A program made the position numbers and the translations under genes. DNA of 64,000 bases, from sequence record OR544955, one strand, 5' to 3'. Below the pieces are notes generated by a model that worked only from the letters and a program-made list of their open reading frames with translations, did no database searches and was not told the origin of the DNA. Origin of the DNA: Escherichia phage vB_EcoP_EP32B. Shown piece by piece: positions 1,284-54,623 of this stretch (the first letter of the stretch is position 1; each line of letters opens with the position of its first letter).

Positions 1284-1539
1284 AGTGTACGGGTATGACT
1301 CTACTATTCATAAATGCATTTATTGCGATAATGCGAAACGATTGCTGACTGTTAAGAAACAGCCATTCGAATTCATTAATGTTATGCCAGAAAAAGGTGT
1401 GTTCGATGATGAGAAAATTGCTGAGCTTCTGGTTAAGCTTGGCCGTGAATCACAAGTCGGATTGACTATGCCTCAAGTGTTTGCTCCTGATGGAACTTCG
1501 ATCGGTGGCTTTGACCAACTACGAGAATATTTTAAATGA
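1276..1539 (+). CDS. nrdC: glutaredoxin/thioredoxin NrdC
   Basis: MFKVYGYDS..CIYCDNAKRLL..GGFDQLREYFK, recalled T4 NrdC match; CxxC active site; RBS GAAAGGA. Confidence 0.9.
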   Translation: MFKVYGYDSTIHKCIYCDNAKRLLTVKKQPFEFINVMPEKGVFDDEKIAELLVKLGRESQVGLTMPQVFAPDGTSIGGFDQLREYFK

Positions 1540-1676
1540 CAATGGTTACCATTACCGTTGAAGAATATAATCGCCTGCAAGCCATTGAAGAGCTTCTTTG
1601 GGAAATTGAATCTGATTTGCCATCTGGGCTAGAATCCTGGGTTGATTATGAAGAGATCAATAAGCTCCGCGGTTAA
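1536..1676 (+). CDS. small hypothetical protein (46 aa)
   Basis: ATG overlaps nrdC stop (ATGA). Confidence 0.3.
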   Translation: MTMVTITVEEYNRLQAIEELLWEIESDLPSGLESWVDYEEINKLRG

Positions 1677-1804
1677 ACCGTGGTATTCGGCTCGATGGGA
1701 GACAGTCGAGCCAGACGTCGAAACGGTTTACAACTACGAAGAACCATGTTATGATGAACCTTCAATAAATGAATTAATTGATATGGAAATGGGAAGAGAT
1801 TATT

Positions 1805-1975
1805 ATGCAAGTTAAATTATTATACCGTTTATTAAAAAATGGCAAGCATGATTGGTATTTGCTTATTAAAACCGATCCGAATTTTTTCTCTGGACAACCA
1901 TTTACAGTTCGTCCTACTAAACGTCAGCTTCGCAAAGCTAAACGTTCTCATCGTAACTTTTATAGAGAATATTGA
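1805..1975 (+). CDS. small basic hypothetical protein
   Basis: ORF 1778..1975, internal ATG with upstream purine-rich tract. Confidence 0.3.
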   Translation: MQVKLLYRLLKNGKHDWYLLIKTDPNFFSGQPFTVRPTKRQLRKAKRSHRNFYREY

Positions 1976-1976
1976 T

Positions 1977-2390
1977 ATGAATATTTCTGAAACTCGCGGT
2001 AAATGGTTCAAGATTGTTAAAGAAGACGAAGAACTCCAAGATAAGTTTCCTGAATTAAAGAAAGATACGATCATCAAGGTAATTGGTACTACTACCGAAG
2101 ATGGTTATGGCGACCATGGCATTATCGAAGTGATGTTGAACACAGGTGAGAAACTTTGCATCTATGACCGTGATACTTCTCTTTGGTGCTTCTGGGAATC
2201 CCATTCAATAGATGAACTCGAAGAAATTGACCAAGTAGTTTGTGATGGTGGTCTTGGCGAATTCGAAGGTGAACGTATTTCTTATGCTTTAGCTAAATTA
2301 GCCGGTCAAGAAAATAACGACGGTTATGAAGGTAATCTGATGCAAGCAGCCGCAGAATACATTGAATATTTAGAAAGACGTTTAAGTTAA
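1977..2390 (+). CDS. hypothetical acidic protein (T4 pin/49.x position)
   Basis: 137-aa ORF between nrdC and gene 49. Confidence 0.5.
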   Translation: MNISETRGKWFKIVKEDEELQDKFPELKKDTIIKVIGTTTEDGYGDHGIIEVMLNTGEKLCIYDRDTSLWCFWESHSIDELEEIDQVVCDGGLGEFEGERISYALAKLAGQENNDGYEGNLMQAAAEYIEYLERRLS

Positions 2391-2429
2391 GTAATAAATA
2401 CCCTTATCTATTTAAGGTAAGGGTTTATC

Positions 2430-2903
2430 ATGTTATTATCAGGCGCAAAATATAAAGAAGAAAAACAAAAATTTTATGATGCACAGAATGGTAAGTGTCC
2501 TATTTGCCACCGTGAATTAGACCCTGATGTTCAAGGTAACCATCTTGACCACGACCATGAATTAAACGGGCCAAAAGCCGGTAGAGTTCGTGGGTTACTA
2601 TGTAACCTGTGCAATGCAGCAGAAGGTCAAATGAAGCATAAGTTCAACCGTTCTGGTCTTAAAGGTCAAAACGTTGACTACCTCGAATGGCTTGAAGCTC
2701 TTCTTGCTTATTTGAAACAAGATTATTCTGATAATAATATCCATCCTAATTTTGTTCCAGACAAAACTAAAGAGTTCTCAAGACTAGGTAAAGAGGAAAT
2801 GATGGCCGAGATGCTTCAAAGAGGATTTGAATATAATGAATCTGATACTAAAACACAATTAATAGCTTCATTCAAAAAGCAGCTTAGAAAGAGTTTAAAA
2901 TGA
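2430..2903 (+). CDS. 49: endonuclease VII (Holliday junction resolvase)
   Basis: 157 aa, zinc motif CPIC..C..C, HLDHDHELNGPKAGRVRGLLCNLCN as in T4 gp49. Confidence 0.95.
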   Translation: MLLSGAKYKEEKQKFYDAQNGKCPICHRELDPDVQGNHLDHDHELNGPKAGRVRGLLCNLCNAAEGQMKHKFNRSGLKGQNVDYLEWLEALLAYLKQDYSDNNIHPNFVPDKTKEFSRLGKEEMMAEMLQRGFEYNESDTKTQLIASFKKQLRKSLK

Positions 2904-4717
2904 AAATTGAAAAAGAAATTGAAGGATTAATTCGTAAAACTAATAAAGATCTTTTAAACGAGAATGCTAATAAAGATTCTCGTGTTTTTCCAACTCAACG
3001 GGACCTTATGGCTGGTATTGTGTCTAAGCACATTGCCAAAAATATGGTCCCGTCTTTTATTATGAAAGCGCATGAAAGTGGAATTATCCACATGCATGAT
3101 ATTGATTATTCTCCTGCTCTTCCGTTTACTAATTGTTGTTTAGTCGATTTAAAGGGGATGCTTGAGAACGGATTTAAATTAGGCAATGCTCAAATTGAAA
3201 CGCCTAAATCGATTGGTGTTGCTACTGCAATTATGGCACAAATTACTGCACAAGTTGCTTCACATCAGTATGGCGGAACTACATTTGCAAATGTCGATAA
3301 AGTTCTTTCTCCTTATGTTAAACGCACATACGCTAAACATGTTGAAGATGCGGAAAAATGGCAAATCGCTGATGCGTTGAATTATGCTCAATCCAAAACA
3401 GAAAAAGATGTCTATGACGCGTTCCAAGCTTATGAATATGAAGTAAATACTCTCTTTAGTTCAAATGGGCAAACGCCTTTTGTAACAATTACATTTGGTA
3501 CGGGAACCGACTGGACTGAACGAATGATTCAGAAGGCAATTCTTAAAAACCGCATTAAAGGTCTTGGTCGTGATGGAATAACTCCTATTTTCCCTAAGCT
3601 TGTTATGTTTGTTGAAGAAGGTGTTAATCTTTATAAAGATGATCCGAACTATGATATTAAGCAGCTTGCTCTAGAGTGTGCAAGTAAAAGGATGTATCCT
3701 GACATTATTTCGGTTAAGAATAATAAAGCTATTACCGGTTCTTCAATTCCAGTTTCTCCAATGGGTTGCCGTAGTTTCTTGGGCGTATGGAAAGATTCGA
3801 CTGGTAATGAAATTCTTGATGGACGTAATAATCTCGGTGTTGTAACGCTGAATCTTCCTCGAATTGCGTTAGATTCTTATATTGGAACACAATTTAACGA
3901 ACAGAAATTTGTTGAATTATTCAATGAACGAATGGATTTGTGTTTTGAAGCATTGATGTGTAGAATTAGTTCCTTAAAAGGAGTTAAAGCGACTGTTGCT
4001 CCTATTCTTTACCAAGAAGGTGCATTCGGGGTTCGTCTTAAACCCGATGACGATATAATTGAGTTATTTAAAAACGGTAGAAGTTCAGTGTCCTTAGGAT
4101 ACATTGGTATTCACGAATTGAATATTCTTGTTGGTCGTGATATTGGACAAGAAATTTTAACTAAAATGAATGCTCTTCTTAAACAATGGACTGAAAGAAC
4201 TGGGTTTGCTTTTAGCTTGTATTCTACACCTGCTGAAAACCTTTGTTATCGTTTCTGTAAACTAGACACAGAAAAATATGGAAGTGTAAAGGATGTTACT
4301 GATAAAGGATGGTATACTAACAGTTTCCACGTTTCAGTAGAAGAAAATATTACTCCGTTTGAAAAGATTTCTCGTGAAGCACCATATCATTTCATTGCGA
4401 CAGGTGGTCACATTTCTTATGTTGAACTTCCTGATATGAAAAACAACCTAAAAGGACTTGAGGCTGTATGGGATTATGCTGCACAGCATTTAGATTATTT
4501 TGGTGTTAATATGCCAGTAGATAAATGTTTTACATGTGGAAGTACCCATGAAATGACTCCGACTGAAAATGGATTTGTTTGTTCTATTTGTGGAGAAACT
4601 GATCCTAAAAAGATGAACACAATAAGAAGAACATGCGGCTATTTGGGGAATCCGAACGAACGAGGATTTAATCTCGGCAAAAATAAAGAAATCATGCATA
4701 GGGTTAAACACCAATGA
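2900..4717 (+). CDS. nrdD: anaerobic ribonucleoside-triphosphate reductase NrdD
   Basis: 605 aa continuous ORF, glycyl-radical C-terminus (RRTCGYLG), C-terminal zinc Cys cluster. Confidence 0.95.
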   Translation: MKIEKEIEGLIRKTNKDLLNENANKDSRVFPTQRDLMAGIVSKHIAKNMVPSFIMKAHESGIIHMHDIDYSPALPFTNCCLVDLKGMLENGFKLGNAQIETPKSIGVATAIMAQITAQVASHQYGGTTFANVDKVLSPYVKRTYAKHVEDAEKWQIADALNYAQSKTEKDVYDAFQAYEYEVNTLFSSNGQTPFVTITFGTGTDWTERMIQKAILKNRIKGLGRDGITPIFPKLVMFVEEGVNLYKDDPNYDIKQLALECASKRMYPDIISVKNNKAITGSSIPVSPMGCRSFLGVWKDSTGNEILDGRNNLGVVTLNLPRIALDSYIGTQFNEQKFVELFNERMDLCFEALMCRISSLKGVKATVAPILYQEGAFGVRLKPDDDIIELFKNGRSSVSLGYIGIHELNILVGRDIGQEILTKMNALLKQWTERTGFAFSLYSTPAENLCYRFCKLDTEKYGSVKDVTDKGWYTNSFHVSVEENITPFEKISREAPYHFIATGGHISYVELPDMKNNLKGLEAVWDYAAQHLDYFGVNMPVDKCFTCGSTHEMTPTENGFVCSICGETDPKKMNTIRRTCGYLGNPNERGFNLGKNKEIMHRVKHQ

Positions 4718-5184
4718 ATTATGATAGATTTTATCCTTGCGATTTTGTGAATGGCCCTGGTTGCAGGGTCGTTCTTTTCGTTACGGGTTGTTTGCATAAA
4801 TGCGAAGGGTGTTATAATAAATCAACATGGAATGCTAGAAATGGTACTCCATTCACTGGAGAGACACTAGAACAATTAATTGAATGTTTGAATAATGATT
4901 ATATAGAAGGATTGACTATAACCGGAGGAGACCCTCTCTATCCTGATAACCGAGATGTTATTCATCGCATTGCTCAAACAGTAAAAAATCTTTATCCTAA
5001 TAAAAGCATTTGGTTGTGGACAGGATACAAGTTTGAAGATATTAAACAACTAGAAATGCTTAAATATGTTGATGTTATTATTGATGGGAAGTATGAGAAA
5101 AATCTTCCGACTAAAAAGCTGTGGCGAGGATCAGATAATCAGCGACTTTGGTCAAATACCGATGGGGTGTGGAAACATGATTAA
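4714..5184 (+). CDS. nrdG: anaerobic RNR activating enzyme NrdG (radical SAM)
   Basis: 156 aa, CxxxCxxC (CLHKCEGC), translationally coupled to nrdD. Confidence 0.93.
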   Translation: MNYDRFYPCDFVNGPGCRVVLFVTGCLHKCEGCYNKSTWNARNGTPFTGETLEQLIECLNNDYIEGLTITGGDPLYPDNRDVIHRIAQTVKNLYPNKSIWLWTGYKFEDIKQLEMLKYVDVIIDGKYEKNLPTKKLWRGSDNQRLWSNTDGVWKHD

Positions 5185-5294
5185 ATTGAATTACATTATG
5201 GATACTATAAATGATATGATTTTTCGTTTTGGTCCAGAATTTTATTCGCAATATAGTTTAATGATTATCAATGCTTAGTTAATTAAGGGTAAAT

Positions 5295-5510
5295 ATGTAC
5301 AAATTTCGTAAAGGTTTAGCTGATTTTCTTACAACTGTAACGTTCTTTTTGTTTATGGCAGTTGGAGCTATTTTTCTTATTCCTTTTACTGCTGTATTTT
5401 TCGTGATTAGTTTAATTTCTCCGGAAAAGGGTTTATCCTCCAGCGAATTCAATGAACGTTTGGACAAAATTACTAATAAACTGAATTCTGTTCTTGATAA
5501 AAAGGCTTAA
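5295..5510 (+). CDS. small membrane protein
   Basis: 71 aa, long hydrophobic core. Confidence 0.45.
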   Translation: MYKFRKGLADFLTTVTFFLFMAVGAIFLIPFTAVFFVISLISPEKGLSSSEFNERLDKITNKLNSVLDKKA

Positions 5511-5512
5511 TT

Positions 5513-5821
5513 ATGATTAGTTTTGAGATTGAAATTTATGGCATCCCTGAAGAAGTAGGACGTTGTCCAGGATGTTATACTGTTACAAAACTTTTAAAGG
5601 AACTCAATGCTCCTTATACATTTTATAAAGTCCTCACTAATAATGGTAAGATTGAATATGACCGTCCTTTAATCGTATCTCTTGCTAAACGTGCAGGATT
5701 CACTTCACTTAATATTCGTTATCCTGTCATATTTTTAAATGGTAAGAAACAAAAGAATATTGCAGAGTTTAAAAAGTCCTTGATTTCATTAGGATACGAC
5801 TCTGATATCATAGAAGATTGA
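5513..5821 (+). CDS. nrdH: glutaredoxin-like protein NrdH
   Basis: 102 aa, CPGC redox motif, position after nrdG. Confidence 0.8.
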   Translation: MISFEIEIYGIPEEVGRCPGCYTVTKLLKELNAPYTFYKVLTNNGKIEYDRPLIVSLAKRAGFTSLNIRYPVIFLNGKKQKNIAEFKKSLISLGYDSDIIED

Positions 5822-5987
5822 CCAGGTGCTGCCTGGTCTTCTTTATCCCATTTCTAATATAATCCATTGGAATCTTCACTTCACTATCTCCTTGTGCCCC
5901 TCTCAAATCAAAAATATTTTCATAAAACAGTTTACATCCTCAATAGATATGTTAAGATTAACACCATCTACCACAGAGGAAAATAAA

Positions 5988-6170
5988 ATGACAATTGAAG
6001 ATAAAGAAATTAAGGCTGACCAGTACTATTCTGTCAACGGTAATGCAGTACAGATAACCAGAGTTTCAAGCCTGGATGTTTGGTACCGTTCAATCAAATA
6101 TCCAGAAATTGGTGAAATGCTTTGTGACCGTGGTATCTTCTGTTCAATTGCGAAGGAAATTAAGCCATGA
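5988..6170 (+). CDS. hypothetical protein
   Basis: internal ATG of ORF 5826..6170 preceded by AGAGGAAAATAAA. Confidence 0.4.
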   Translation: MTIEDKEIKADQYYSVNGNAVQITRVSSLDVWYRSIKYPEIGEMLCDRGIFCSIAKEIKP

Positions 6171-6394
6171 TTAGTTTAGATTCAAAGAAAGTTGTTCTAA
6201 CCCTTAAAGTTAATGCGATTTGCATGTTGAAATTGCTAATGGCGTTCGTACTTATCAAGCAAATAAAACTCATTGGGATTATATCCCGATGTTGACGCTT
6301 ACTCAGCGTTTAGAATCAATCGGTCTTAAAGACCTTTCAGTAAGTGAAGTGAATTTTATCAAACGCGTTGTATCAATCAACCTCTGAGGTACTT

Positions 6395-11109: not shown

Positions 11110-11317
11110 TTATGAAATCCATCGTCATGAATTTAGTATTGGTGACGGTTATATTGGTATAGTTTTATGAGGAGACAACTCCTCGTTTCTTTGGAACCAT
11201 GTATGTTACTTGTGAGTACGCACCAGGTGTTGTTATGTATGCAGAACTAGATGAATATTTTGCTGATAGAGATGACATGTTAAAATATGTAGAGGACTTC
11301 ATTCGAAGAGAATACAT

Positions 11318-12880
11318 ATGAAATCATTTAAATTAAATCGTGTTCGTTATCAAAACATCATGTCAGTAGGTGGGAATCCTATTGATATCCAATTAGATAA
11401 AGTCCAAAAGACATTAATCACTGGTAAAAATGGCGGTGGTAAATCTACGATGTTAGAAGCCATTACTTTCGGACTTTTCGGTAAACCATTTCGTGATGTT
11501 AAGAAAGGACAAATCATTAATAGCATGAACAAGAAAGAGCTCTTAGTTGAGCTTTGGATGGAATTCGATGATAAAAAATACTTCATTAAACGTGGCCAAA
11601 AGCCCAATATTTTCGAAATCTCCGTTGACGGTGTTCGTCTCGATGAATCTGCCAGCAGTCGTGACTTCCAAGAAGAATTTGAACGTAGCATCGGAATGTC
11701 ATACGCGTCTTTTAAACAAATCGTTGTGCTTGGGACGGCAGGGTATACCCCTTTCATGGCTCTTAGCACCCCTGCTCGTAGAAAGCTTGTTGAAGACTTA
11801 TTAGAAGTTGGCACACTCGCTGAAATGGATAAAATCAATAAGTCTCAAGTTCGCGAACTTAATTCTCAGGGACAAGTTCTTGATGCCAAGAAAGATGGTA
11901 TTATCCAACAAATTAAGATTTATAACGAGAATATCGAACGTCAAAAGAAATTATCTGGTGATAATGTAGCGCGTCTACAGAATATGTATGACGACCTAGC
12001 CAAAGAAGCTCGGTCATTAAAAGCAGAAATCGAAGAAGCTAATGAGCGACTACTTAATATCGTTCTTGATGAAGACCCTACTGAGGCATTCAACAAGATA
12101 GGACAAGAAGCATTCTTGATTAAATCTAAAATTGACTCATATAACAAAGTTATTAAGATGTATCATGATGGCGGTACATGTCCTACTTGTGCATCACAGT
12201 TGCACCAGGGTGACCCTATTGTCTCTAAGATTACCGATAAGCTTCATGAATGTAATCACTCATTCGAGCAACTTACATGTCACAGAGATAATCTGAGTGT
12301 CCTAGTGGACGAATATAGAGCTAATGTCAAGACTAAACAGGACCTTGCATCTGATATTCGTACCAAGAAACAAGCAATGATTGCCACTATTGATAAAGCT
12401 AAGAAAGTTAAAGCTGCAATAGAACAAGCCTCAGCAGAATTTATCGACCATGCCGATGAGATAGCTTTGCTTCAAAAAGAACTTGATAAAATCATTAAAA
12501 CAAAATCGGATATCGTTCTTGAAAAATACCATCGTGGTATTATCACAGATATGTTAAAAGATTCTGGTATTAAAGGTGCTATCATTAAAAAATATGTGCC
12601 TCTGTTCAACAAGCAGATTAACCATTATCTTAAAATCATGGAAGCTGATTACGTGTTTTCTATTGACGAAGAATTCAATGAATCTATAAAATCACGTGGC
12701 CGTGAAGAGTTCAGTTATGCTTCATTTAGTCAAGGCGAAAAAGCGCGTATCGATATCGCATTGTTGTTTACATGGCGAGATATTGCTGAAAAGGTCTCTG
12801 GTGTTAAAATCAACACAACGTGTTCATTATTTCTCACAGAGACCATGACCCACAAGCTTATGGACAACATCTTCAAATGA
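11318..12880 (+). CDS. 46: recombination ATPase gp46 (Rad50/SbcC-like); C-terminus disrupted, H-loop segment continues in another frame to 12918
   Basis: Walker A GKNGGGKST, zinc hook CPTC, signature SQGEKARIDIAL; no Walker B in frame; VFIISHRDHDPQ in other frame. Confidence 0.85.
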   Translation: MKSFKLNRVRYQNIMSVGGNPIDIQLDKVQKTLITGKNGGGKSTMLEAITFGLFGKPFRDVKKGQIINSMNKKELLVELWMEFDDKKYFIKRGQKPNIFEISVDGVRLDESASSRDFQEEFERSIGMSYASFKQIVVLGTAGYTPFMALSTPARRKLVEDLLEVGTLAEMDKINKSQVRELNSQGQVLDAKKDGIIQQIKIYNENIERQKKLSGDNVARLQNMYDDLAKEARSLKAEIEEANERLLNIVLDEDPTEAFNKIGQEAFLIKSKIDSYNKVIKMYHDGGTCPTCASQLHQGDPIVSKITDKLHECNHSFEQLTCHRDNLSVLVDEYRANVKTKQDLASDIRTKKQAMIATIDKAKKVKAAIEQASAEFIDHADEIALLQKELDKIIKTKSDIVLEKYHRGIITDMLKDSGIKGAIIKKYVPLFNKQINHYLKIMEADYVFSIDEEFNESIKSRGREEFSYASFSQGEKARIDIALLFTWRDIAEKVSGVKINTTCSLFLTETMTHKLMDNIFK

Positions 12881-16374: not shown

Positions 16375-19059
16375 ATGAAAGAATTTTACTTAACGGTTGA
16401 ACAGATTGGTGATTCAATTTTTGAACGTTACATCGATTCTAATGGCCGTGAACGTACTCGTGAAGTAGAATATAAACCATCACTGTTTGCTCATTGTCCA
16501 GAAAGTCAGGCTACGAAATATTTCGATATCTACGGTAAGCCGTGTACTCGTAAGTTGTTCGCTAATATGCGTGATGCCTCCCAATGGATTAAACGTATGG
16601 AAGATATCGGACTTGAAGCACTTGGCATGGACGATTTCAAATTGGCGTATTTGTCTGACACTTATAACTATGAAATCAAATACGACCATACAAAAATTCG
16701 TGTGGCTAACTTCGACATCGAAGTAACATCTCCGGACGGGTTCCCTGAGCCGTCACAAGCAAAACATCCGATTGATGCTATCACCCATTATGACTCAATT
16801 GACGACAGGTTCTACGTATTTGATCTATTGAATTCTCCATATGGTAATGTAGAAGAATGGTCTATCGAAATTGCAGCTAAGCTTCAAGAACAAGGTGGTG
16901 ATGAAGTTCCATCCGAAATTATCGATAAAATCATTTATATGCCGTTCGATAACGAAAAAGAATTGTTGATGGAATATCTCAACTTCTGGCAACAGAAAAC
17001 TCCTGTCATTTTGACTGGATGGAACGTTGAGTCATTTGATATTCCATATGTGTATAACCGAATCAAGAATATTTTTGGCGAATCTACTGCGAAACGTTTA
17101 TCACCACATCGTAAAACTCGTGTTAAAGTTATCGAAAACATGTATGGTTCTCGTGAAATCATTACATTGTTCGGTATCTCTGTTCTTGATTATATTGACC
17201 TTTACAAAAAATTCTCTTTTACCAATCAACCGTCGTATTCTCTGGATTACATTTCAGAATTTGAATTGAACGTTGGTAAACTGAAATACGACGGTCCTAT
17301 TTCTAAACTTCGTTATAACATCATCGACGTATATCGTGTATTGCAAATTGATGCTAAACGCCAGTTCATTAACTTGAGTTTGGACATGGGTTATTATGCT
17401 AAGATACAGATTCAATCTGTGTTTAGCCCAATTAAAACATGGGATGCTATTATTTTTAATAGCCTTAAAGAACAAAACAAGGTGATTCCACAAGGTCGTT
17501 CGCATCCAGTTCAACCTTACCCGGGTGCTTTTGTTAAGGAACCTATTCCAAATCGATACAAATATGTAATGAGTTTCGACCTTACATCTCTGTATCCAAG
17601 TATTATTCGCCAAGTGAATATTAGCCCGGAAACAATAGCAGGAACGTTTAAAGTAGCTCCACTGCATGATTATATTAACGCAATCGCTGAACGTCCTTCA
17701 GATGTGTACAGTTGCTCTCCTAACGGCATGATGTATTATAAAGACCGTGACGGTGTTGTTCCAACTGAAATCACTAAGGTCTTTAATCAACGTAAAGAAC
17801 ATAAAGGTTATATGCTTGCAGCTCAACGTAATGGTGAAATAATTAAAGAGGCATTGCATAATCCTAATCTTTCTGTTGACGAACCATTAGATGTTGATTA
17901 TCGTTTCGACTTCAGCGATGAGATTAAAGAAAAGATTAAAAAGTTGTCTGCTAAATCTCTTAATGAAATGTTGTTTAGAGCTCAACGTACTGAAGTTGCA
18001 GGTATGACTGCACAGATTAACCGTAAATTGCTTATCAACTCACTTTATGGTGCACTTGGAAACGTTTGGTTCCGTTATTATGATTTGCGTAATGCTACTG
18101 CAATCACAACATTCGGACAAATGGCTTTACAGTGGATTGAACGTAAAGTTAATGAATATCTGAATGAAGTTTGCGGTACAGAAGGTGAAGCTTTCGTTCT
18201 TTATGGTGATACAGACTCTATTTACGTATCTGCTGATAAAATTATCGATAAGGTTGGTGAATCTAAATTCCGTGATACCAACCATTGGGTAGACTTCTTA
18301 GATAAGTTCGCTCGTGAACGTATGGAACCTGCTATTGATAGAGGTTTCCGTGAAATGTGCGAATACATGAATAATAAGCAACATTTGATGTTCATGGACC
18401 GAGAAGCTATCGCTGGTCCTCCGCTCGGTTCTAAAGGTATTGGTGGATTTTGGACTGGTAAGAAACGTTATGCATTAAACGTGTGGGATATGGAAGGTAC
18501 TCGTTACGCTGAGCCTAAACTCAAAATCATGGGTCTAGAGACTCAGAAATCTTCGACACCTAAAGCAGTACAGAAAGCTCTTAAAGAATGTATTCGTCGT
18601 ATGCTTCAAGAAGGTGAAGAATCATTACAAGAATATTTTAAAGAGTTTGAAAAAGAATTCCGTCAATTGAATTATATTAGCATCGCGTCGGTATCTTCTG
18701 CGAATAACATTGCTAAATATGATGTCGGTGGATTCCCTGGCCCCAAATGTCCGTTCCATATTCGTGGAATTCTGACATATAACCGAGCTATCAAAGGTAA
18801 TATCGATGCACCGCAAGTTGTAGAAGGTGAAAAAGTATATGTTCTGCCTTTACGTGAAGGAAACCCATTCGGTGATAAATGTATCGCATGGCCTTCTGGT
18901 ACGGAAATCACTGATTTAATCAAAGATGATGTACTTCATTGGATGGACTACACGGTTCTCCTTGAGAAGACATTTATTAAACCACTTGAAGGATTCACAT
19001 CAGCAGCTAAACTCGATTACGAGAAGAAAGCATCTCTGTTCGATATGTTTGATTTTTGA
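16375..19059 (+). CDS. 43: DNA polymerase gp43 (family B, RB69-type numbering)
   Basis: 894 aa; Exo I FDIE (D114/E116), D222, YGDTDS, KILINSLYG; strong match to recalled RB69 gp43. Confidence 0.97.
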   Translation: MKEFYLTVEQIGDSIFERYIDSNGRERTREVEYKPSLFAHCPESQATKYFDIYGKPCTRKLFANMRDASQWIKRMEDIGLEALGMDDFKLAYLSDTYNYEIKYDHTKIRVANFDIEVTSPDGFPEPSQAKHPIDAITHYDSIDDRFYVFDLLNSPYGNVEEWSIEIAAKLQEQGGDEVPSEIIDKIIYMPFDNEKELLMEYLNFWQQKTPVILTGWNVESFDIPYVYNRIKNIFGESTAKRLSPHRKTRVKVIENMYGSREIITLFGISVLDYIDLYKKFSFTNQPSYSLDYISEFELNVGKLKYDGPISKLRYNIIDVYRVLQIDAKRQFINLSLDMGYYAKIQIQSVFSPIKTWDAIIFNSLKEQNKVIPQGRSHPVQPYPGAFVKEPIPNRYKYVMSFDLTSLYPSIIRQVNISPETIAGTFKVAPLHDYINAIAERPSDVYSCSPNGMMYYKDRDGVVPTEITKVFNQRKEHKGYMLAAQRNGEIIKEALHNPNLSVDEPLDVDYRFDFSDEIKEKIKKLSAKSLNEMLFRAQRTEVAGMTAQINRKLLINSLYGALGNVWFRYYDLRNATAITTFGQMALQWIERKVNEYLNEVCGTEGEAFVLYGDTDSIYVSADKIIDKVGESKFRDTNHWVDFLDKFARERMEPAIDRGFREMCEYMNNKQHLMFMDREAIAGPPLGSKGIGGFWTGKKRYALNVWDMEGTRYAEPKLKIMGLETQKSSTPKAVQKALKECIRRMLQEGEESLQEYFKEFEKEFRQLNYISIASVSSANNIAKYDVGGFPGPKCPFHIRGILTYNRAIKGNIDAPQVVEGEKVYVLPLREGNPFGDKCIAWPSGTEITDLIKDDVLHWMDYTVLLEKTFIKPLEGFTSAAKLDYEKKASLFDMFDF

Positions 19060-19099
19060 TATAATGCCAAGGACGGCCAACTAATTAAATGAGAGAAAT

Positions 19100-19408
19100 A
19101 TGAAAACTACTCCTATTACTATCGCTATTGACGCAATCATAAAACAAGCTTCTTCTTTGGCCGCTATGGCCAAAGTAATTAGTCAAAACCCTGCTCGTTA
19201 TAATGCTATTCTAGAAACTCTTCGACGCCCTGGACTGAGTAATTATGAAAGTCGTGTAATTATTACAGGTGTTGGTAAGAACGCTAATATCGCAACTAAA
19301 GCTTCCGAGACATTTGCTTCACTCGGTATCCCGAGTATGTACTTGAACACTGGGCATTATTCTCACGGTGATGCAGGATTCATTGCGCCTAATGAGGCAT
19401 CGCGGTAG
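19100..19408 (+). CDS. KdsD/GutQ-like SIS-domain sugar-phosphate isomerase, N-terminal part (gene frameshifted, continues 19396-19575)
   Basis: ITGVGKNANIATK..TFASLGIPS..HGD; downstream frame has LAPTMSTT and HPGGALG. Confidence 0.6.
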   Translation: MKTTPITIAIDAIIKQASSLAAMAKVISQNPARYNAILETLRRPGLSNYESRVIITGVGKNANIATKASETFASLGIPSMYLNTGHYSHGDAGFIAPNEASR

Positions 19409-19575
19409 AGGTTGATGAGAATTCTCTGGCTCCGACAATGTCTACTACATTGTTGTTAGCGCTTATCGATACGTTCGCTATCAACCTTTCGTCTGAACGT
19501 GGATTTACCTCTAATGATTTCCTTAAGTTCCATCCAGGCGGTGCACTAGGTGCCATGTTACGAGGCGAACAATGA
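19396..19575 (+). pseudogene. C-terminal segment of the SIS isomerase in the -1 frame
   Basis: open frame from 19396 encoding GIAVEVDENSLAPTMSTT...GFTSNDFLKFHPGGALG, no start codon. Confidence 0.55.
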
Positions 19576-19715
19576 AAGCAATAACAATAGGACTTTTACT
19601 ATTGATGCTTGTCATGACTATCTACTGGAGCTTAACGGCTCCGGTAATGATTCCAACACTTGTAATTGGATGGATTATGATTGGACTACAAGCAAAGTAT
19701 GAATGCTTTAACTAG
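19572..19715 (+). CDS. small membrane protein (47 aa)
   Basis: ATGA overlap, hydrophobic. Confidence 0.4.
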   Translation: MKAITIGLLLLMLVMTIYWSLTAPVMIPTLVIGWIMIGLQAKYECFN

Positions 19716-19756
19716 AATAGTGTACAATACACCTACTTACCAATGAGGACTTCAAC

Positions 19757-21442
19757 ATGAAAAAAGCTGTTATTCTTGGTGCTGGACTGGCAACTCGTTT
19801 GTATCCAATAACGCATCATATTCCAAAAGTTCTTGTGAACTATAAACAAGACACTATTCTGAGCAATTTGTATACAATTTATTCTGACCTTGGCGCAGAT
19901 GAAATTATTGTAGTAGTTCATTCAAAATTTGCTGAAACTGTTCGAGCTTATTGTGAGCAAGAAGGGTTCAATGTGACTATTCGTACAGTTGATGAAGCGT
20001 ATGGTTCTGCTTATGCTCTTGCTAAATTACACAAAGATTTAGATGGCCATAACGTAATTGTTAACTGGTGTGATATTATTCCTGATTTTGGTTCATGGTC
20101 TTGGAATGTTAATGCAATCTATGTTAAGGGTGACGAATGTCGATATAATTTTGACGGTGAAAATATCACTAACGTAGGTTCAACAGGTGGTAATGTTGTA
20201 GGAATTTATCAGTTCAAAGACTGGGAATTCTACATGGGTTCTACTGATGAGGAAATTCACGAATACTGCAAAGGTCGTGATTTCGTAGAATTCCTTTACG
20301 GCAGCGCATTCAATAAATCAGAGCTTATGAATCTAATTGATTTAGGTGATATGCCTAAACTTGAAAAAGCTCATGAAGTTCGTGAACTTAATCGTAGTTT
20401 TAATGCAGTTGAAATTGGTGAAGAAACTGTAACTAAATTCGCATTAACCGAACAAGGTCGAGCTCTTCAAAAAGATGAGATTTCATGGTATTTGAAAGTG
20501 AAATCAGATTCAGTTCCTCAGTTAGTTTCGGTAAATGAAAATAATTTTGAAATGGAACGCATTAAAGGTAAGCCGGCATTTGAATATATTAAATCCAAAT
20601 CAAGTCTTGCTCGTCCACAAATTGTTGATGCAATTTTAGATGCACTGAAATTCAGCACAGACACTTATTTTGTAAGTCCTGAAACTGTTCGTCGTGATTT
20701 CACTAAAGAATTCTATACGAAAGTTATTGATCGTTGTGAAAGCATTCAGCCATTGATTGATTCATTTGGTAAAATCACACACGTGAACTACACTAAGATT
20801 GGACGTCTGAAGCCAATGCTGAAGCAAGCTTTAGAACATCTTATTCGTTATCATACCCGTTCTCAGGGACAGTACTCTGTTATTCATGGTGACCCGAACT
20901 TCAGTAATACTATGATTACTGATAATGGCGAAGTCAAGTTTATCGACCCTCGTGGATATTTTGGCGAAACCAAGATTTACGGGCCAAAATTGTACGATGA
21001 AGCTAAAGTGCTTTATGCTGTTTCAGGTTATGATGAATTCAACGCTAATCCGACCTGGGGACAGTTTACTATTGACGAAACAACTTGTAATGTGACTATT
21101 AACATCAATCCATTAGTTTACAAATATGGAAAGATGAGTTCGTTTAACGAGTATCATCATTTGGCTGTAGCAATTATCTGGATTGCATTAGGTGGTTATT
21201 TCAAGAATAATCCACTTAAAGCGGTAGCCGCATATTATAAAGGTATGGAACTTCTGACTAAGCAATTACGTAACATGGGCCGTGTACTTCAAGACGGCTC
21301 TATTAGTTATGACGTAGCAGAACCTGTAACGGCTACTCTGATTACAAAAAATCCTGGTAAATGGGTACTAACTGATAAAGAAACTGGTGTTTCTTATCGT
21401 CCAATCGGTGGCGATATCACTCATCAATGGGAACGAATCTAA
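19757..21442 (+). CDS. bifunctional sugar-1-phosphate nucleotidyltransferase / sugar kinase (APH-choline-kinase-like)
   Basis: N-term GAGLATRL; C-term HGDPNFSN catalytic loop and IDPRG; 561 aa. Confidence 0.75.
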   Translation: MKKAVILGAGLATRLYPITHHIPKVLVNYKQDTILSNLYTIYSDLGADEIIVVVHSKFAETVRAYCEQEGFNVTIRTVDEAYGSAYALAKLHKDLDGHNVIVNWCDIIPDFGSWSWNVNAIYVKGDECRYNFDGENITNVGSTGGNVVGIYQFKDWEFYMGSTDEEIHEYCKGRDFVEFLYGSAFNKSELMNLIDLGDMPKLEKAHEVRELNRSFNAVEIGEETVTKFALTEQGRALQKDEISWYLKVKSDSVPQLVSVNENNFEMERIKGKPAFEYIKSKSSLARPQIVDAILDALKFSTDTYFVSPETVRRDFTKEFYTKVIDRCESIQPLIDSFGKITHVNYTKIGRLKPMLKQALEHLIRYHTRSQGQYSVIHGDPNFSNTMITDNGEVKFIDPRGYFGETKIYGPKLYDEAKVLYAVSGYDEFNANPTWGQFTIDETTCNVTININPLVYKYGKMSSFNEYHHLAVAIIWIALGGYFKNNPLKAVAAYYKGMELLTKQLRNMGRVLQDGSISYDVAEPVTATLITKNPGKWVLTDKETGVSYRPIGGDITHQWERI

Positions 21443-21828
21443 TGCACCGTGTAGAAAACATGCTTAATCTTTGTTTTGATGTCGATGATTGTATAACAGA
21501 GTGGAATAACAATCGTGATTACGTGAACTTCAAACCAGACGTCGAAATGGTGACTGCTATTAATGCCCTGTATGATGCAGGGCATACCATAACGCTTTAC
21601 ACTGCTCGTGGTATGAAGTCAGTAGGTCCTGGTCGTATAGCAATTGACATTCTCCCAAGTCTGATTCAGAACTTGGAAAACATTGGTTTGAAGTACCATA
21701 ATTTGCTAACACATAAACCAGTATATGATTGGATTATCGACGACAAAGCTATGCGTCCCGACGAATTCAAAGCTCTTATGAATAAAGGCGAATTCGAAAC
21801 ATTTAAATCATATAAACCGAATCTATAA
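21442..21828 (+). CDS. HAD-superfamily phosphatase
   Basis: motif I FDVDDCIT (DxDxT); TAATG coupling. Confidence 0.65.
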   Translation: MHRVENMLNLCFDVDDCITEWNNNRDYVNFKPDVEMVTAINALYDAGHTITLYTARGMKSVGPGRIAIDILPSLIQNLENIGLKYHNLLTHKPVYDWIIDDKAMRPDEFKALMNKGEFETFKSYKPNL

Positions 21829-30671: not shown

Positions 30672-31088
30672 ATGATTTATTATATGCACAAAAATGCGCC
30701 ATTTAAATATGGTAAATTTCCTAATGCACAATGTTATAATATAACGCCTAATGAAAATAATAACGGATACCATCTCGGTGTAATTTTTGTAATTGTTAAA
30801 GATAACGAAATCGTTGCCTGGGCAGATTTTAAAGGTACAACATATGATGTTAATCCTGTGCCTTTCACATATTATAATTTAATGGATTTGGCATATGATT
30901 ATAATTGGTTTAATCATGAAGGATTTGACATCTCTTATTCTAGCTATTCATTATGTCCTATGAGCCGAGCTCACGGTAAAGATGTATCATATCTTTCAAT
31001 TCGGAAACGTGTAAACTTCAAACGTAGTACAGAGTATGTTGGTGGACTCTTTGTTAAAGATAATAAAATAACATTAGTTATCCTCTAA
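30672..31088 (+). CDS. hypothetical protein; reading frame appears to continue in -1 frame to about 31294
   Basis: 138-aa ORF; adjacent start-less open frame 31067-31294. Confidence 0.4.
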   Translation: MIYYMHKNAPFKYGKFPNAQCYNITPNENNNGYHLGVIFVIVKDNEIVAWADFKGTTYDVNPVPFTYYNLMDLAYDYNWFNHEGFDISYSSYSLCPMSRAHGKDVSYLSIRKRVNFKRSTEYVGGLFVKDNKITLVIL

Positions 31089-31295
31089 GTGTAGGCCAAA
31101 AAGATGTTGATGTTGATTTGGACTTAACTGAAAATAACATTAATCGTATTGCTTCTGTATATTTTGATATCGATGAAAAAATTGTAGTGTGTGGATACGA
31201 ATTACCACCTGAAGAAAAGGCCGAAACAATTGAAGTCGAATTAGAAATTTCTGTTGATGACCAAATATTTAATGCATTTATGAATCGAGGTTAAA

Positions 31296-31481
31296 ATGAC
31301 TACTGCAATTTGCACTGGTTCTAAAATTAGTGTTTTTACAAGTTTTGAAGATTATGAAGTTGTTTCAAAACACCAATGCCATATTAGCGTAAAAGCTAAT
31401 GACGGTGTAATTTGGAATATTCCACAGTATGAAGGCACTACATATGAAGTCACAGATAAAGCAATCTTTGTAATTGATTAA
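31296..31481 (+). CDS. hypothetical protein
   Basis: 61-aa ORF. Confidence 0.4.
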   Translation: MTTAICTGSKISVFTSFEDYEVVSKHQCHISVKANDGVIWNIPQYEGTTYEVTDKAIFVID

Positions 31482-33313: not shown

Positions 33314-33628
33314 ATGGCGCACTTTAATGAATGTTCACAACTTATTTCTGGTGTTGATAAAGCAGAAGAAGCTTATTTTAATGCTCTGATTCACGAAGAT
33401 AAAGACCCACTTCAGGTAATGCTTGATATGCAGAAATCTTTACAGGTTCGTCTGGCAAATGACAAGCCTGAACATAACAAACATCCTGATGAATTGGCTA
33501 CTGCCGGTGATGTTGTTGATTGGCTGCGTAATCAGAAAGATTATATTGATGATGAATTCCGTGAACTGTTGACTTCACTTGGTGGTATGATTATAAATAC
33601 ACCTGTAATTAAACAACAAAGGAGTTAA
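33314..33628 (+). CDS. MazG-like all-alpha NTP pyrophosphatase (gene 56 dCTPase-like), possibly short
   Basis: 104 aa; DDEFRELL motif; position after 61. Confidence 0.45.
   Translation: MAHFNECSQLISGVDKAEEAYFNALIHEDKDPLQVMLDMQKSLQVRLANDKPEHNKHPDELATAGDVVDWLRNQKDYIDDEFRELLTSLGGMIINTPVIKQQRS
33592..33599 (+). promoter_or_regulatory. late promoter TATAAATA for soc
   Basis: exact TATAAATA about 32 nt upstream of soc ATG. Confidence 0.7.
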
Positions 33629-33630
33629 TT

Positions 33631-33774
33631 ATGGGTGGTTATGTAAACATCAAAACCTTTACGCATCCTGCTGGTGAAGGCAAAGAAGTTAAAGGTATGG
33701 AAGTTTCTGTACCGTTTGAGATTTATTCAAACGAACATCGGATTGCTGATTCTCATTACCAAGTAAGTGGTTAA
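33631..33774 (+). CDS. soc: small outer capsid protein Soc, short form (47 aa)
   Basis: MGGYVNIKTF..EVSVPFEIYSNEHRIADSHYQ resembles recalled T4/RB69 Soc N-terminal half. Confidence 0.6.
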   Translation: MGGYVNIKTFTHPAGEGKEVKGMEVSVPFEIYSNEHRIADSHYQVSG

Positions 33775-33782
33775 ATAATTTA

Positions 33783-33808
33783 AGGAATCCTTCGGGATTC
33801 CTTTTTTT
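33783..33808 (+). terminator. UUCG-tetraloop hairpin plus T7 run
   Basis: AGGAATCC TTCG GGATTCC TTTTTTT. Confidence 0.75.
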
Positions 33809-33817
33809 GTTTCTACA

Positions 33818-33848
33818 GTTTACAACCACTAAAAACTGTGTTAAGATA
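33818..33848 (+). promoter_or_regulatory. early promoter
   Basis: -35 GTTTACA, 17-nt spacer, -10 TAAGAT. Confidence 0.55.
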
Positions 33849-33875
33849 TTTTTACTTACTCAAGAGGAGAACAAT

Positions 33876-34103
33876 ATGTTAAATCGTTGGATTAAACCTA
33901 ATAACACATTAGGTGCTTTGATTGCTCAAGAAGTTTCATTAAAGTACGGTCTTGGATATTACGATGATGTAGTCGTACACTCATTCATGATGGATGGTGA
34001 AGACGTCAAATTTAATGCCGAAATCCGCTGGGATGACGGTGGTGTTCGTTTTGTTCGAGGAACAATTAATGCTTACGATACTGAAGAAGTTGTTTGCTGT
34101 TAA
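33876..34103 (+). CDS. hypothetical protein
   Basis: RBS GAGGAGAACAAT. Confidence 0.45.
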   Translation: MLNRWIKPNNTLGALIAQEVSLKYGLGYYDDVVVHSFMMDGEDVKFNAEIRWDDGGVRFVRGTINAYDTEEVVCC

Positions 34104-34116
34104 ACCAGGCGAAGGT

Positions 34117-34317
34117 ATGATGCCTATTCCTGATACACACGAAAAAAGTTGGGAATATATCGGTGACGGCATGATGGAAGAAGTTGTTCGTCCAAAAACA
34201 AAACAGGTTAATGCTTCAAGCTCTTCAAGTTATAATCATTCATACGTATCGTCTTGGCCTGGTGATTCTGGGTCAAGTTATTCTGATTGTGGTTCAAACT
34301 CAGGGAGCTGCGAATGA
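34117..34317 (+). CDS. hypothetical Ser-rich protein
   Basis: internal ATG of ORF 33994..34317. Confidence 0.35.
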   Translation: MMPIPDTHEKSWEYIGDGMMEEVVRPKTKQVNASSSSSYNHSYVSSWPGDSGSSYSDCGSNSGSCE

Positions 34318-34493
34318 ACAAGATAGTTAAATGGTTTAAAAGCTGGGACGATGGTGTCGGTCCAGAAGATTGGCTGGATGTTCTTGAAGAGAATATGGCT
34401 AAAGAATTCCAAAAACATGAAGAGAAGCTCGTCGAAGATGAAGGCGAACGTATTGTAAAACTTTATATGGGTGAACCATCGAGGAAATTATAA
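34314..34493 (+). CDS. hypothetical protein
   Basis: ATGA coupling. Confidence 0.35.
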   Translation: MNKIVKWFKSWDDGVGPEDWLDVLEENMAKEFQKHEEKLVEDEGERIVKLYMGEPSRKL

Positions 34494-34957
34494 TGGATGC
34501 TATGTTATTTAAAATGTATTTGCTTGAAGCCAAGTCGTTTAAACATATACCAGTAGAAGATAAGACTCCACTAGAAATAGCTATTCTCATTAACAAAAGT
34601 CTAAATAATCCGCAATATATCGTAGAAGAATTCTGCAAATTGCAGATTCCTAAAGGTTACAAAATTCGTGTAGAGCGAGTTGGAGCTATTACTCGTTCTA
34701 AAAATTCTCCGTTTAGTCTTGAAGAAGGCATAAAGGACTTAGGTTATGAATCTACGGAAAATGCCGTTTATGCGAATCCTGAAAAGCGTTTAGACTTGTT
34801 TGAAAAGCGAGACCACAAATATTTTGCCAAAAAATACTTTATTACATCATTAGCAGATTTAATCCATTTGCAACGAGCTATTTGGAAATTTTTTAAGACA
34901 AAAGGTGTAGCGCTAGAAACATTTTCTGAACCGGCTAGTTTTTATCTCGGTGAATAA
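34493..34957 (+). CDS. hypothetical protein
   Basis: 154-aa ORF. Confidence 0.5.
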   Translation: MDAMLFKMYLLEAKSFKHIPVEDKTPLEIAILINKSLNNPQYIVEEFCKLQIPKGYKIRVERVGAITRSKNSPFSLEEGIKDLGYESTENAVYANPEKRLDLFEKRDHKYFAKKYFITSLADLIHLQRAIWKFFKTKGVALETFSEPASFYLGE

Positions 34958-34958
34958 T

Positions 34959-35138
34959 ATGGACTTGATGAGTATGTTTGATGAGCCTGAAGTTGAGGCT
35001 CCTAAAGTTCATCGTAGTGAACTTGTCGATGAACTAGATAGTATTATACAACGTCACGGCTTTAGTTTACCATTAGAAGTCCTGAAAGACCTTGCCTCTT
35101 ATTATGATGACCCTCCACCATGGAGTCCTTGGAAATGA
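34959..35138 (+). CDS. hypothetical acidic protein
   Basis: 59 aa. Confidence 0.4.
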   Translation: MDLMSMFDEPEVEAPKVHRSELVDELDSIIQRHGFSLPLEVLKDLASYYDDPPPWSPWK

Positions 35139-35299
35139 AAGAGAAATTGAAAGAGAAATTCTTACTAGAAATCAAGGAAAAAGACTTTGAGACATGGTAT
35201 CGAATGGTGAAAGGGTTGACATTGCTTTTTAAAGCATCGTTATTCATGTTAGAACAACCTGGTCCTGATGGTCCTTTAGTAGGAAAGCTTAAAAAGTAG
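35135..35299 (+). CDS. hypothetical protein (54 aa)
   Basis: ATGA coupling. Confidence 0.3.
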   Translation: MKEKLKEKFLLEIKEKDFETWYRMVKGLTLLFKASLFMLEQPGPDGPLVGKLKK

Positions 35300-35328
35300 T
35301 TTACATTCCCTCCTCTCGTGTTATGATA
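35299..35328 (+). promoter_or_regulatory. early promoter
   Basis: -35 GTTTACA 35299-305, -10 TATGAT 35322-27. Confidence 0.55.
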
Positions 35329-35354
35329 GGCTTATCTTTAAATGGAGGTCTATC

Positions 35355-35936
35355 ATGACATGTCAATCTGAACTTCAAGAACGCGAATACCTAACAAATC
35401 TGATTGATAGCAAATTCACCCGCCAAGAACAAAACATTCTCTGGGCTTGCACCGATTCTAAGGAAGACCCGGATTTCCACTATGAATTAGACCATCTTGT
35501 TCGTAAGCATATGACTTCTACAGTACCGGTAGAGCTCTACCGTGGTGTAACTCCAGAAGAAGTAGAACGTCTTTCCCTTCTTTCTGTTGGATGCCATTGG
35601 TCTCCTGGACGAGTAACATCGTTCACAACTGATTTCAGTACAGCTCGTCAATTCTCCGGGAGATGGGAATATCAGACGTACACTATTCTTAGTCTCAGGA
35701 ATGCTCCATTCATTTTTGATTACTACCAAAACATGGTTAACATTGTACTCGCCGGAAAGAACCCTAAGCATGTTATGGAAGAAACGCGTGTTGACGTCCT
35801 AGATATGATTGAATCTGAACAAGAGTACATGGTCTCAGGTATCTCTAGATTTGAGATTGTGGAAATTGAAGACTTAGAATATGACCCTTTATCTCGATTA
35901 TACAAAATCATTCATTTGAAAATGTTGAATTTTTAG
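35355..35936 (+). CDS. ADP-ribosyltransferase, ModA/ModB family
   Basis: R-S-E motifs: ELYRG, SFTTD, ESEQEY; 193 aa. Confidence 0.6.
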   Translation: MTCQSELQEREYLTNLIDSKFTRQEQNILWACTDSKEDPDFHYELDHLVRKHMTSTVPVELYRGVTPEEVERLSLLSVGCHWSPGRVTSFTTDFSTARQFSGRWEYQTYTILSLRNAPFIFDYYQNMVNIVLAGKNPKHVMEETRVDVLDMIESEQEYMVSGISRFEIVEIEDLEYDPLSRLYKIIHLKMLNF

Positions 35937-36046
35937 TGTACAAACTCTTCCGATGATGATACTATACCTCTATCAACCACAGGAGAAACCTAAATGTTTA
36001 TGCCGTATAACGAGTGTGAAATTGAAGAAATGGTTCGTCGTGCTCA

Positions 36047-36505
36047 ATGCCCGGATTATCAAGATTAAGTGCAATTGTTCGTAGAAATTGGTCGTCTTCT
36101 GTTCCTGAGACAATGTATCGTGGAATCTCTAAGAAAACTATGGCCACACTCGATGATAAAGGTATTGGTAGTATTATTAAATTTGACAGAGTAATGAGCT
36201 TCAGCCCAGTGTTCGGTGTAGCACGTAACTTTGCTTCGTATAATTTTTACGGAACATTTAATATGTTCTGCATCAAAGATGCACCATTTGCTTTCAACTT
36301 CCGTGAACATATGCTTAACATGATTCTGGCTGCGCCATCTTGTGAGTTCAATGGAGCTTTCCCTGAAGCGACAAGACGGTCTAATGCTAGACTTATATCT
36401 GACGAATGTGAATTTATGCTCCCTATAGGGACTACACTGCGTGTAGATTCTATTATTCAAGATGGAAGTTATACAATCTGGAATCTGTCTATTGTCAGTT
36501 ACTGA
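36047..36505 (+). CDS. ADP-ribosyltransferase paralog; N-terminus apparently frameshifted (RBS and ATG at about 35994 in another frame)
   Basis: MYRG, SFSPV, ECEFML motifs; upstream 24-codon ORF with strong RBS ends at 36069. Confidence 0.55.
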   Translation: MPGLSRLSAIVRRNWSSSVPETMYRGISKKTMATLDDKGIGSIIKFDRVMSFSPVFGVARNFASYNFYGTFNMFCIKDAPFAFNFREHMLNMILAAPSCEFNGAFPEATRRSNARLISDECEFMLPIGTTLRVDSIIQDGSYTIWNLSIVSY

Positions 36506-45030: not shown

Positions 45031-45621
45031 ATGAAAGTTATGTTTATCCCATCTCGCGCAGTCCCATTTAATCCTGACCGTGTACAAGGTGGACTTGAAG
45101 CAGTACATTTAAATGTGTTGAAATATTTAGTTTCTATCGGTGCCGATATTGATTATATTGGTTTTGATAATGACACATTTGGTGATTGGAAGGTTAATCA
45201 TCATCCTGTTGGTCATCTGACTAAATTCAGTCTAGGTATGAGTTATACTATGGCCCGTAAGATTGTTGAACTAGCCGGCATCCATGAATACGATTTTGTT
45301 GTTACTATGGAACCGACTAAACTAACCGTCCAAGCAATTAAAGATGCTGGACTCTCTAAAGTTCATAAGAATTTTATGGCAACACCGTTTGAACCGGTAT
45401 CTCGTGGCATTGTTCAAATTTGGGACCAGACTATTCAAATTCATAAGAATGGTGGTAAGAGTTATGCTCCTACTAAAGCCTTCCGTGAATTTGAACGTAA
45501 ATATTGTTATATGACTTCAGGTCTGACTGACAAAATTGATTATGATTATTGGCGAGCAAATCCGTTGTTTGAAGCCGAAGATTATCCGGTTATTTGTTTG
45601 AATGAGAAACCTGAGATCTGA
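45031..45621 (+). CDS. GT-B-fold glycosyltransferase, N-terminal domain (gene split by frameshift)
   Basis: MKVMFIPSRAVPFNPDRVQGGLE..; ends NEKPEI. Confidence 0.55.
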   Translation: MKVMFIPSRAVPFNPDRVQGGLEAVHLNVLKYLVSIGADIDYIGFDNDTFGDWKVNHHPVGHLTKFSLGMSYTMARKIVELAGIHEYDFVVTMEPTKLTVQAIKDAGLSKVHKNFMATPFEPVSRGIVQIWDQTIQIHKNGGKSYAPTKAFREFERKYCYMTSGLTDKIDYDYWRANPLFEAEDYPVICLNEKPEI

Positions 45622-46115
45622 TTATTAGTGCACAACGTTATGACACTAAAATGCGTCGTACTGATGTTGCTCTTGAAGCGATTAAAGCACTAGGCGAAAA
45701 TGGTGCAGGATACTGTCCAAGCAAATGGGCACCACCAGCTAAATATCCTGTTATTATTGATGCTCAACACAGTGAAATCATGGAACGTCTTAAAACAGCT
45801 AAAGCACTTATTAATACGTGTCCTGACACAGGTACGGTAGAGAATAGTTCTATTGAAGCCATCTCTAAAGGTGTCCCTGTAATCCAGTTAGTTTTTAAGG
45901 ATTATCCTCATGCGACATTCGAATACGACCCAGATACTGTGCGTGTAGAAATTGATTCCTCTACTCCTAAGAAAGAAGTAGTTGCGCTTTACACAAAAGC
46001 TGTATTAGAATTCACTGACACATACGAAGCTCGAGTTAAACGTGCTGAAGCAGTATGGAAGAAGTATAATCGAGATGCAGTTGTTGCGATGTGGGATAAA
46101 ATCTTCACAGCGTAA
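45615..46115 (+). CDS. GT-B-fold glycosyltransferase, C-terminal domain (-1 frame; first ATG at 45651)
   Basis: frame open from 45615: DLIISAQRYDTKMRRTDVALEAIKAL, typical of GT4 C-domain start. Confidence 0.55.
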   Translation, partial: DLIISAQRYDTKMRRTDVALEAIKALGENGAGYCPSKWAPPAKYPVIIDAQHSEIMERLKTAKALINTCPDTGTVENSSIEAISKGVPVIQLVFKDYPHATFEYDPDTVRVEIDSSTPKKEVVALYTKAVLEFTDTYEARVKRAEAVWKKYNRDAVVAMWDKIFTA

Positions 46116-54535: not shown

Positions 54536-54623
54536 AATCATTTAAAGAACGTTTAGAAATGAAGTTCCTGAAATCTGTTGGCAAACTCTGGTTATTCCTG
54601 GAGTTCGTCATTACTCTAAAGAT

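Follow-up and report, generated by a model that had tools for sequence, protein, structure and literature searches.

A split arabinose-5-phosphate isomerase gene in an RB69-like phage sequence belongs to a window-wide series of blunt deletions of probably artefactual origin

The gene at positions 19100-19575 of the OR544955 window (the whole stretch of 64,000 nt that was analysed) is by sequence similarity orthologous to RB69p055, which encodes the SIS-type arabinose-5-phosphate isomerase in the cluster for DNA arabinosylation. A central part of this gene is missing, and the missing part is one of a window-wide series of unselected blunt deletions. Most likely, at a probability of about 80%, the isomerase deletion is an artefact of assembly or sequence processing or a deliberate edit. 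Since at least 20 more such deletions are present and essential genes are included among their targets, the split of the isomerase gene has to be regarded as a problem of sequence quality and not as an event specific to this gene.

Judged by its closest relatives the window is that of an RB69-like T-even phage (Mosigvirus). A 24-kb query was 97.9% identical to O157 typing phage 3 (O157tp3) and 97.5% identical to RB69, and the 894-aa open reading frame at 16375-19059 is the T-even DNA polymerase gp43. A megablast search with positions 18900-19800 matched 154 phage records, all of the Mosigvirus type with 90-97% identity, among them RB69, O157 typing phages 3/6/13, JS09, and phiE142. The GenBank record of phiE142 (121,442 bp) is about 47 kb below the other Mosigvirus genomes and may be incomplete. 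When 13 genes were compared with O157tp3, the third codon position accounted for 302 of 335 substitutions (90%), with 270 transitions and 65 transversions. The remnant of the isomerase gene differs from O157tp3 at 11 nucleotides, all of them third codon positions, and no amino acid is changed. Because of this substitution pattern, in the isomerase gene as in the other genes, the underlying genome is that of a genuine, distinct Mosigvirus under purifying selection, the isomerase gene included.

In the relatives the orthologue is a single open reading frame of 636 bp and 211 aa directly after gp43 (RB69p055, ECTP3_00356), annotated as arabinose 5-phosphate isomerase or KpsF. A three-way DNA alignment with RB69 and O157tp3 revealed that exactly 160 bp are absent from the gene in the window, which is otherwise free of indels. 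The gene is laid out as follows:

19100..19408, plus strand: 5' isomerase fragment, a 102-aa open reading frame with ATG start, 100% amino acid identity to residues 1-98 of RB69p055
19394..19396, plus strand: junction of the 160-bp deletion, located by alignment; the relatives encode residues 99-152 here
19396..19575, plus strand: 3' isomerase fragment in the -1 frame, 59 codons, residues 153-211

The 5' fragment reads HYSHGDAGFIAPNE near its end, followed by TAG. Its product would be a stub of 98 native residues (up to HGDAGFIAPN) and the out-of-frame residues E-A-S-R, so that the frame ends at 19408 after the HGD motif, just as the first-pass annotation had described. The frame open from 19396 is preceded by a TGA at 19393-19395 and extends to the stop codon at 19573-19575, reading GIAVEVDENSLAPTMSTT...FHPGGALGAMLRGEQ; the protein encoded by this fragment (GIAVEVDENSLAPTMSTT...HPGGALGAMLRGEQ) is 100% identical to RB69p055. 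The segments LAPTxSTT and HPGGALG were indeed found in this -1 frame, and together with HGD, which is in frame 0, all three are retained. The position of the junction is ambiguous by 1 nt (an A) and is either after 19394 or after 19395. Contrary to the same annotation, the downstream frame does possess a start codon: the ATG at 19438 (the Met of LAPTMSTT) opens a 45-aa reading frame (19438-19575), which comprises only a C-terminal scrap of the protein. The residues missing from the window protein are D-VLIHISRSGKTEEMIGVAKHLKMIRPNVKQILLHCNPDIPQENEALFDYSFCT (99-152), and 160 nt correspond to 53 residues and one base; the annotation had correctly recognised the loss of the SxSGxT motif and had put its size too low at roughly 40 residues. 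The motif SRSGKT, which is the SxSGxT-type loop of the orthologues, is situated inside the deleted 160 bp. The alignment to RB69 and O157tp3 hence agrees with the view that the gene is frameshifted and has lost the middle of the SIS domain, this loop included.

Both fragments are identical in protein sequence to RB69p055, and therefore the split gene is not a chance pattern. A DNA identity of about 97% and the same neighbours as in 153 records identify it as the remnant of an RB69p055 orthologue. Purifying selection acted on the gene until the deletion, since 98 plus 59 residues are 100% identical to RB69p055 and all 11 nucleotide differences are third-position changes. Signs of an evolved pseudogene were not found: the remaining coding sequence has no non-synonymous excess, and the junction is not common to the relatives.

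The intact RB69p055 protein matched the Pfam SIS family PF01380 with 41.9 bits (cut-off 25, E = 1e-10), whereas no match to PF01380 was obtained from either fragment of the window. RB69p055 also aligned over the whole SIS domain, deleted segment included, with the solved isomerases 3etn, 5uqi, and 2xhz (E = 3e-25 to 4e-19; 2.6e-25 for 3etn). The deleted residues 99-152 comprise one strand of the core, the SRSGKT loop, and then a helix and a further strand.

These results bear on two further readings. First, the arrangement could be functional, both fragments being joined by programmed -1 frameshifting or in a shortened SIS isoform. The fragments are in adjacent frames and overlap by 13 nt (19396-19408), as such a reading would have it. 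However, all relatives encode one frame of 211 aa, the joined product would be without the residues that align with the core of the three solved structures, neither fragment reaches a SIS-domain score, and the two-frame layout was encountered neither in the phage, IMG/VR, and metagenome collections nor in the genome collection. The single frame of the relatives, the lost core, and the missing SIS match all but rule out programmed frameshifting and a functional short isoform. Second, the 160 bp could be a mobile or intervening insertion in the relatives, with the window as the ancestral state. The difference in length would suit this reading and nothing more does, but the frame is broken without the 160 bp. 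Because the deleted segment aligns residue by residue with the bacterial isomerase structures, the 160 bp are the conserved, ancestral SIS core and not an insertion, and this reading is refuted.

The deletion is unique to the window. The full 1061-bp stretch that is the counterpart of 901 bp in the window was spanned by 153 of the 154 matching phage records, and the comparison with orthologues that the first-pass annotation had proposed yielded the short single-frame form in 0 of 154. A 40-mer centred on the junction, which seeds a megablast match only where the junction itself exists, was absent from 50,697 phage genomes, and a 26-mer of the junction was absent from IMG/VR, a metagenome collection, and a genome collection. 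When the junction 40-mers of all 21 deletions described below were combined into one query, no match was obtained in the phage collection, while control 40-mers located 60 bp upstream of each junction matched 446 records at 1907 places. The IMG/VR contig IMGVR_UViG_2974739009_000001 (121,442 bp) shares the local SNP pattern of the window in the 5' part of the isomerase gene. This contig was rejected as the parent haplotype of the window, for it retains the 160 bp and is only about 97% identical to the window overall. Look-ups by exact protein sequence with the 102-aa stub and with the intact 561-aa protein encoded nearby matched no recorded entry.

When the whole window was compared with O157tp3 and RB69, at least 21 blunt deletions emerged, with lengths of 4-722 bp; their positions agree between the two references, and all are unique to the window. 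Insertions of 4 bp or more relative to these two phages were not found in the window. As a baseline, RB69 and O157tp3, whose mutual divergence equals that of the window from either of them, differ by only two large indels in about 50 kb; these are of the gene presence/absence kind, and the other gaps measure 1-3 bp. Besides the isomerase gene the following genes are affected:

1539..6216, plus strand: small early genes with four unique blunt deletions
11164..11165, plus strand: gp46.1 homologue with a 14-bp frameshifting deletion
11318-12880, plus strand: gp46 (Rad50/SbcC-like) with an 88-bp frameshifting deletion at 12816..12817
16375..19059, plus strand: gp43 DNA polymerase, 894 aa versus 903, with a 27-bp in-frame deletion after 17312
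30919..31458, plus strand: gp61.2 homologue and the next gene with three deletions
33589..33590, plus strand: gp56 dCTPase with a 594-bp deletion, 92 of 173 residues left
33761..36065, plus strand: deletions in soc and modA
45031..46115, plus strand: RB69p003 homologue, open reading frames of 196 aa and 154 aa, with a 16-bp deletion after 45614
49976..49977, plus strand: ECTP3_00409 homologue with a 14-bp frameshifting deletion
57690..58801, minus strand: gp37 distal long tail fibre with five deletions, pieces within 57407-58992

The deletions in the early genes follow positions 1539 (216 bp), 2391 (188 bp), 5525 (298 bp), and 6215 (28 bp). The deletion in gp43 removes ESNHQRYIS (approximately residues 314-322), the stretch that directly precedes the YNIIDV (Exo III) motif, and gp46 is left with 520 instead of 562 aa and without the C-terminal ATPase part. 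In the gp61.2 homologue 24 bp are missing after 30919, and a second deletion of 4 bp after 31072 shifts the frame; 12 bp are deleted after 31457 in the gene that follows. The 594-bp deletion takes the C-terminal 81 aa of gp56 and two small genes after it, and the remainder of gp56 now reads on, in the same frame, into the final 12 codons of the second of these genes. In soc, a 93-bp deletion after 33761 leaves only residues 1-45 of 78 matching, and a 97-bp deletion after 36064 shifts the frame of modA. The deletions in gp37 comprise 247, 334, 722, 43, and 350 bp after 57690, 58009, 58157, 58242, and 58800, respectively; the pieces are in three frames, the longest open reading frames being 96 and 182 aa. 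The adjacent genes gp38 and gp36 are intact, and in the control search several retained pieces of gp37 were 100% identical in DNA sequence to O157 typing phages 3/6/13. Throughout the window, the surviving pieces of broken genes have 97-100% protein identity to the relatives. At 54557-54584, inside the ECTP3_00419 homologue, about 26 bp replace about 201 bp of O157tp3; this is not a blunt deletion and may be natural variation or another lesion.

The 21 deletions measure 4, 12, 14, 14, 16, 24, 27, 28, 43, 88, 93, 97, 160, 188, 216, 247, 298, 334, 350, 594, and 722 bp, which amounts to about 3.6-3.7 kb of lost DNA. Their lengths modulo 3 are distributed 6/10/5, as expected by chance. The deleted DNA has no composition bias (GC content 0.388 versus 0.372 for the window), and microhomology at the junctions is 0 nt at 14, 1 nt at five, and 2 nt at two of them, compared with about 75/19/5% by chance. 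With junction microhomology of only 0-2 nt and no shared k-mers, repeat collapse or De Bruijn misassembly is unlikely, and a repeat-mediated natural deletion was rejected on the same microhomology values. We also discarded an in-silico mutation of the whole sequence: the substitutions, 90% of them at third positions and with a 4:1 ratio of transitions to transversions, look natural, and only the deletions do not.

The lesions are unique and blind to reading frame and to essentiality, and they are found amid normal substitutions. Since reading frame and gene essentiality are ignored, the deletions have never been exposed to selection. Genes 37, 46, and 56 are needed for growth of T4, and because these three genes are broken a phage with the sequence of the window could not propagate. 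The record could nevertheless be faithful to real but defective DNA, for example non-viable deletion genomes that intact phages in the same cell carried along, or environmental DNA that had been damaged. Such an origin would be in keeping with the natural substitution pattern and with the fact that all the lesions are deletions. It would, however, require at least 21 independent events without microhomology on one 64-kb stretch, and the resulting genome would on its own be unable to replicate, package, or adsorb (gp46, gp56, and gp37 broken). Short direct repeats are the typical end points of deletions in T4, and none were seen at the junctions. We therefore consider defective DNA an unlikely source of the sequence.

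That the isomerase deletion is unique, that it belongs to a series across the window, and that this series escaped selection leads us to infer an artefactual origin and the kind of artefact. The 160-bp deletion would then neither have arisen nor persisted in a replicating phage, and the deletions would have been superimposed on a natural genome during production or handling of the sequence. This may have happened by dropping uncovered positions from a reference-guided consensus, by butting contigs together without gaps, or by deliberate or accidental editing of the sequence. The deletions are mildly clustered: six spacings are below 400 bp (P ~0.02), and gp37 accounts for five. Such clustering hints that the cause was linked to certain regions and to that extent counts against our preferred explanation; on the other hand, the five deletions in the mosaic gene gp37 would fit the dropping of regions that have low coverage or map poorly.

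As to the pathway in which the isomerase is predicted to act, Thomas et al. 2018 (PMC6024577) proposed that ORF055c and ORF53_52c serve in the synthesis of UDP-arabinose for the arabinosylated cytosine found in RB69. In a 2026 study (PMC13326640) gp55 was assigned to the predicted step from ribulose-5-phosphate to arabinofuranose-5-phosphate, gp52:53 (AfhE-like) to the kinase and pyrophosphorylase steps, gp51 (AfhF-like, HAD-like) to the phosphatase step, and RB69p003 to the role of arabinosyltransferase. In both publications the isomerase activity of RB69p055 is a prediction only (PMC6024577, PMC13326640). An intact isomerase of the RB69p055 type is thus predicted to convert ribulose-5-phosphate to arabinose-5-phosphate in the first step of the NDP-arabinose pathway, a 561-aa nucleotidyltransferase-kinase would carry out the next step, and the pathway would lead to the arabinosylation of modified cytosine in the DNA of RB69-like phages. 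The isomerase sequence as written would give rise only to the 102-aa stub and to no enzyme. A second broken gene of the pathway in the window is the homologue of RB69p003, the candidate arabinosyltransferase. The genes that follow the isomerase gene are intact:

19572..19715, plus strand: 47-aa hydrophobic open reading frame, its ATG overlapping the isomerase stop codon (ATGA)
19757..21442, plus strand: 561-aa nucleotidyltransferase and kinase-like protein (RB69 ORF53_52c / AfhE-like), Pfam NTP_transferase
21427..21828, plus strand: RB69p051 homologue (HAD-like phosphatase, AfhF-like, PMC13326640)

The 47-aa open reading frame (MKAITIGLLLLMLVMTIYW...) is strongly hydrophobic and kept in the relatives; it is annotated with 111 bp in RB69 and 144 bp in O157tp3.

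E. coli makes arabinose-5-phosphate with KdsD and GutQ. For this reason the loss of the isomerase alone could be tolerated, and consequently this single deletion could be real without the others being so. The deletion would then be a genuine recent event in a viable phage that obtains arabinose-5-phosphate from the host enzymes KdsD, GutQ, or KpsF, and the remaining deletions would be unrelated errors. The 160-bp deletion is cleanly defined, host enzymes with the same activity exist, and the adjoining pathway genes are intact, all of which would suit a real event. Yet the deletion has the same form as 20 others that are impossible in a viable phage, its junction occurs in 0 of the 154 matching records, and the flanking sequences are without relaxed selection. 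Moreover, the arabinosyltransferase homologue was struck as well, which points to random damage and not to the loss of a single step. A genuine recent deletion is accordingly quite improbable, and we regard it as very unlikely that a viable RB69-like phage with a real 160-bp deletion feeds its DNA arabinosylation from the KdsD/GutQ pool of the host. If this were true, the phage isomerase would be an accessory booster of flux and not a required step.

The isomerase gene belongs to the RB69-type arabinosylation cluster, in which it is well known and conserved, and under the artefact explanation its disruption in this sequence tells us nothing reliable about the phage. Other findings in the window of frameshifted, truncated, domain-less, or short proteins should be read as the same artefact; this caution applies to gp43, gp46, gp56, gp37, the RB69p003 homologue, modA, and soc.

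The bacterial isomerases (the SIS domain 2xhz of E. coli KdsD, 3etn of Bacteroides fragilis, and 5uqi) can be aligned with the intact phage orthologue, with which they have in common the segments HGD, S-x-SG-x-T, (L/M)(A/T)PT-x-STT, and H-x-GG-x-LG. KdsD has CBS domains, whereas the phage protein consists of a SIS domain only. Unlike the bacterial isomerases, the copy in the window has neither the S-x-SG-x-T loop nor two of the secondary-structure elements of the core and is below the Pfam SIS threshold. RB69p055 and the Mosigvirus orthologues occupy the same site, directly after gp43 and ahead of the small membrane open reading frame and the 561-aa nucleotidyltransferase-kinase. Compared with RB69p055, the 157 residues retained in the window are identical, 160 bp are gone, and the gene is split over two frames, which is the case in no other record. 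The RB69 GenBank record itself offers a likeness: a one-base error splits the gene downstream into ORF053c and ORF052c (PMC6024577), and the single 561-aa open reading frame at 19757-21442 agrees with the published correction of that record (PMC6024577). As probably here, an arabinosylation gene is split there by the sequence record and not in the phage; the RB69 record contains one extra base, whereas in the window 160 bp are missing alongside 20 further deletions.
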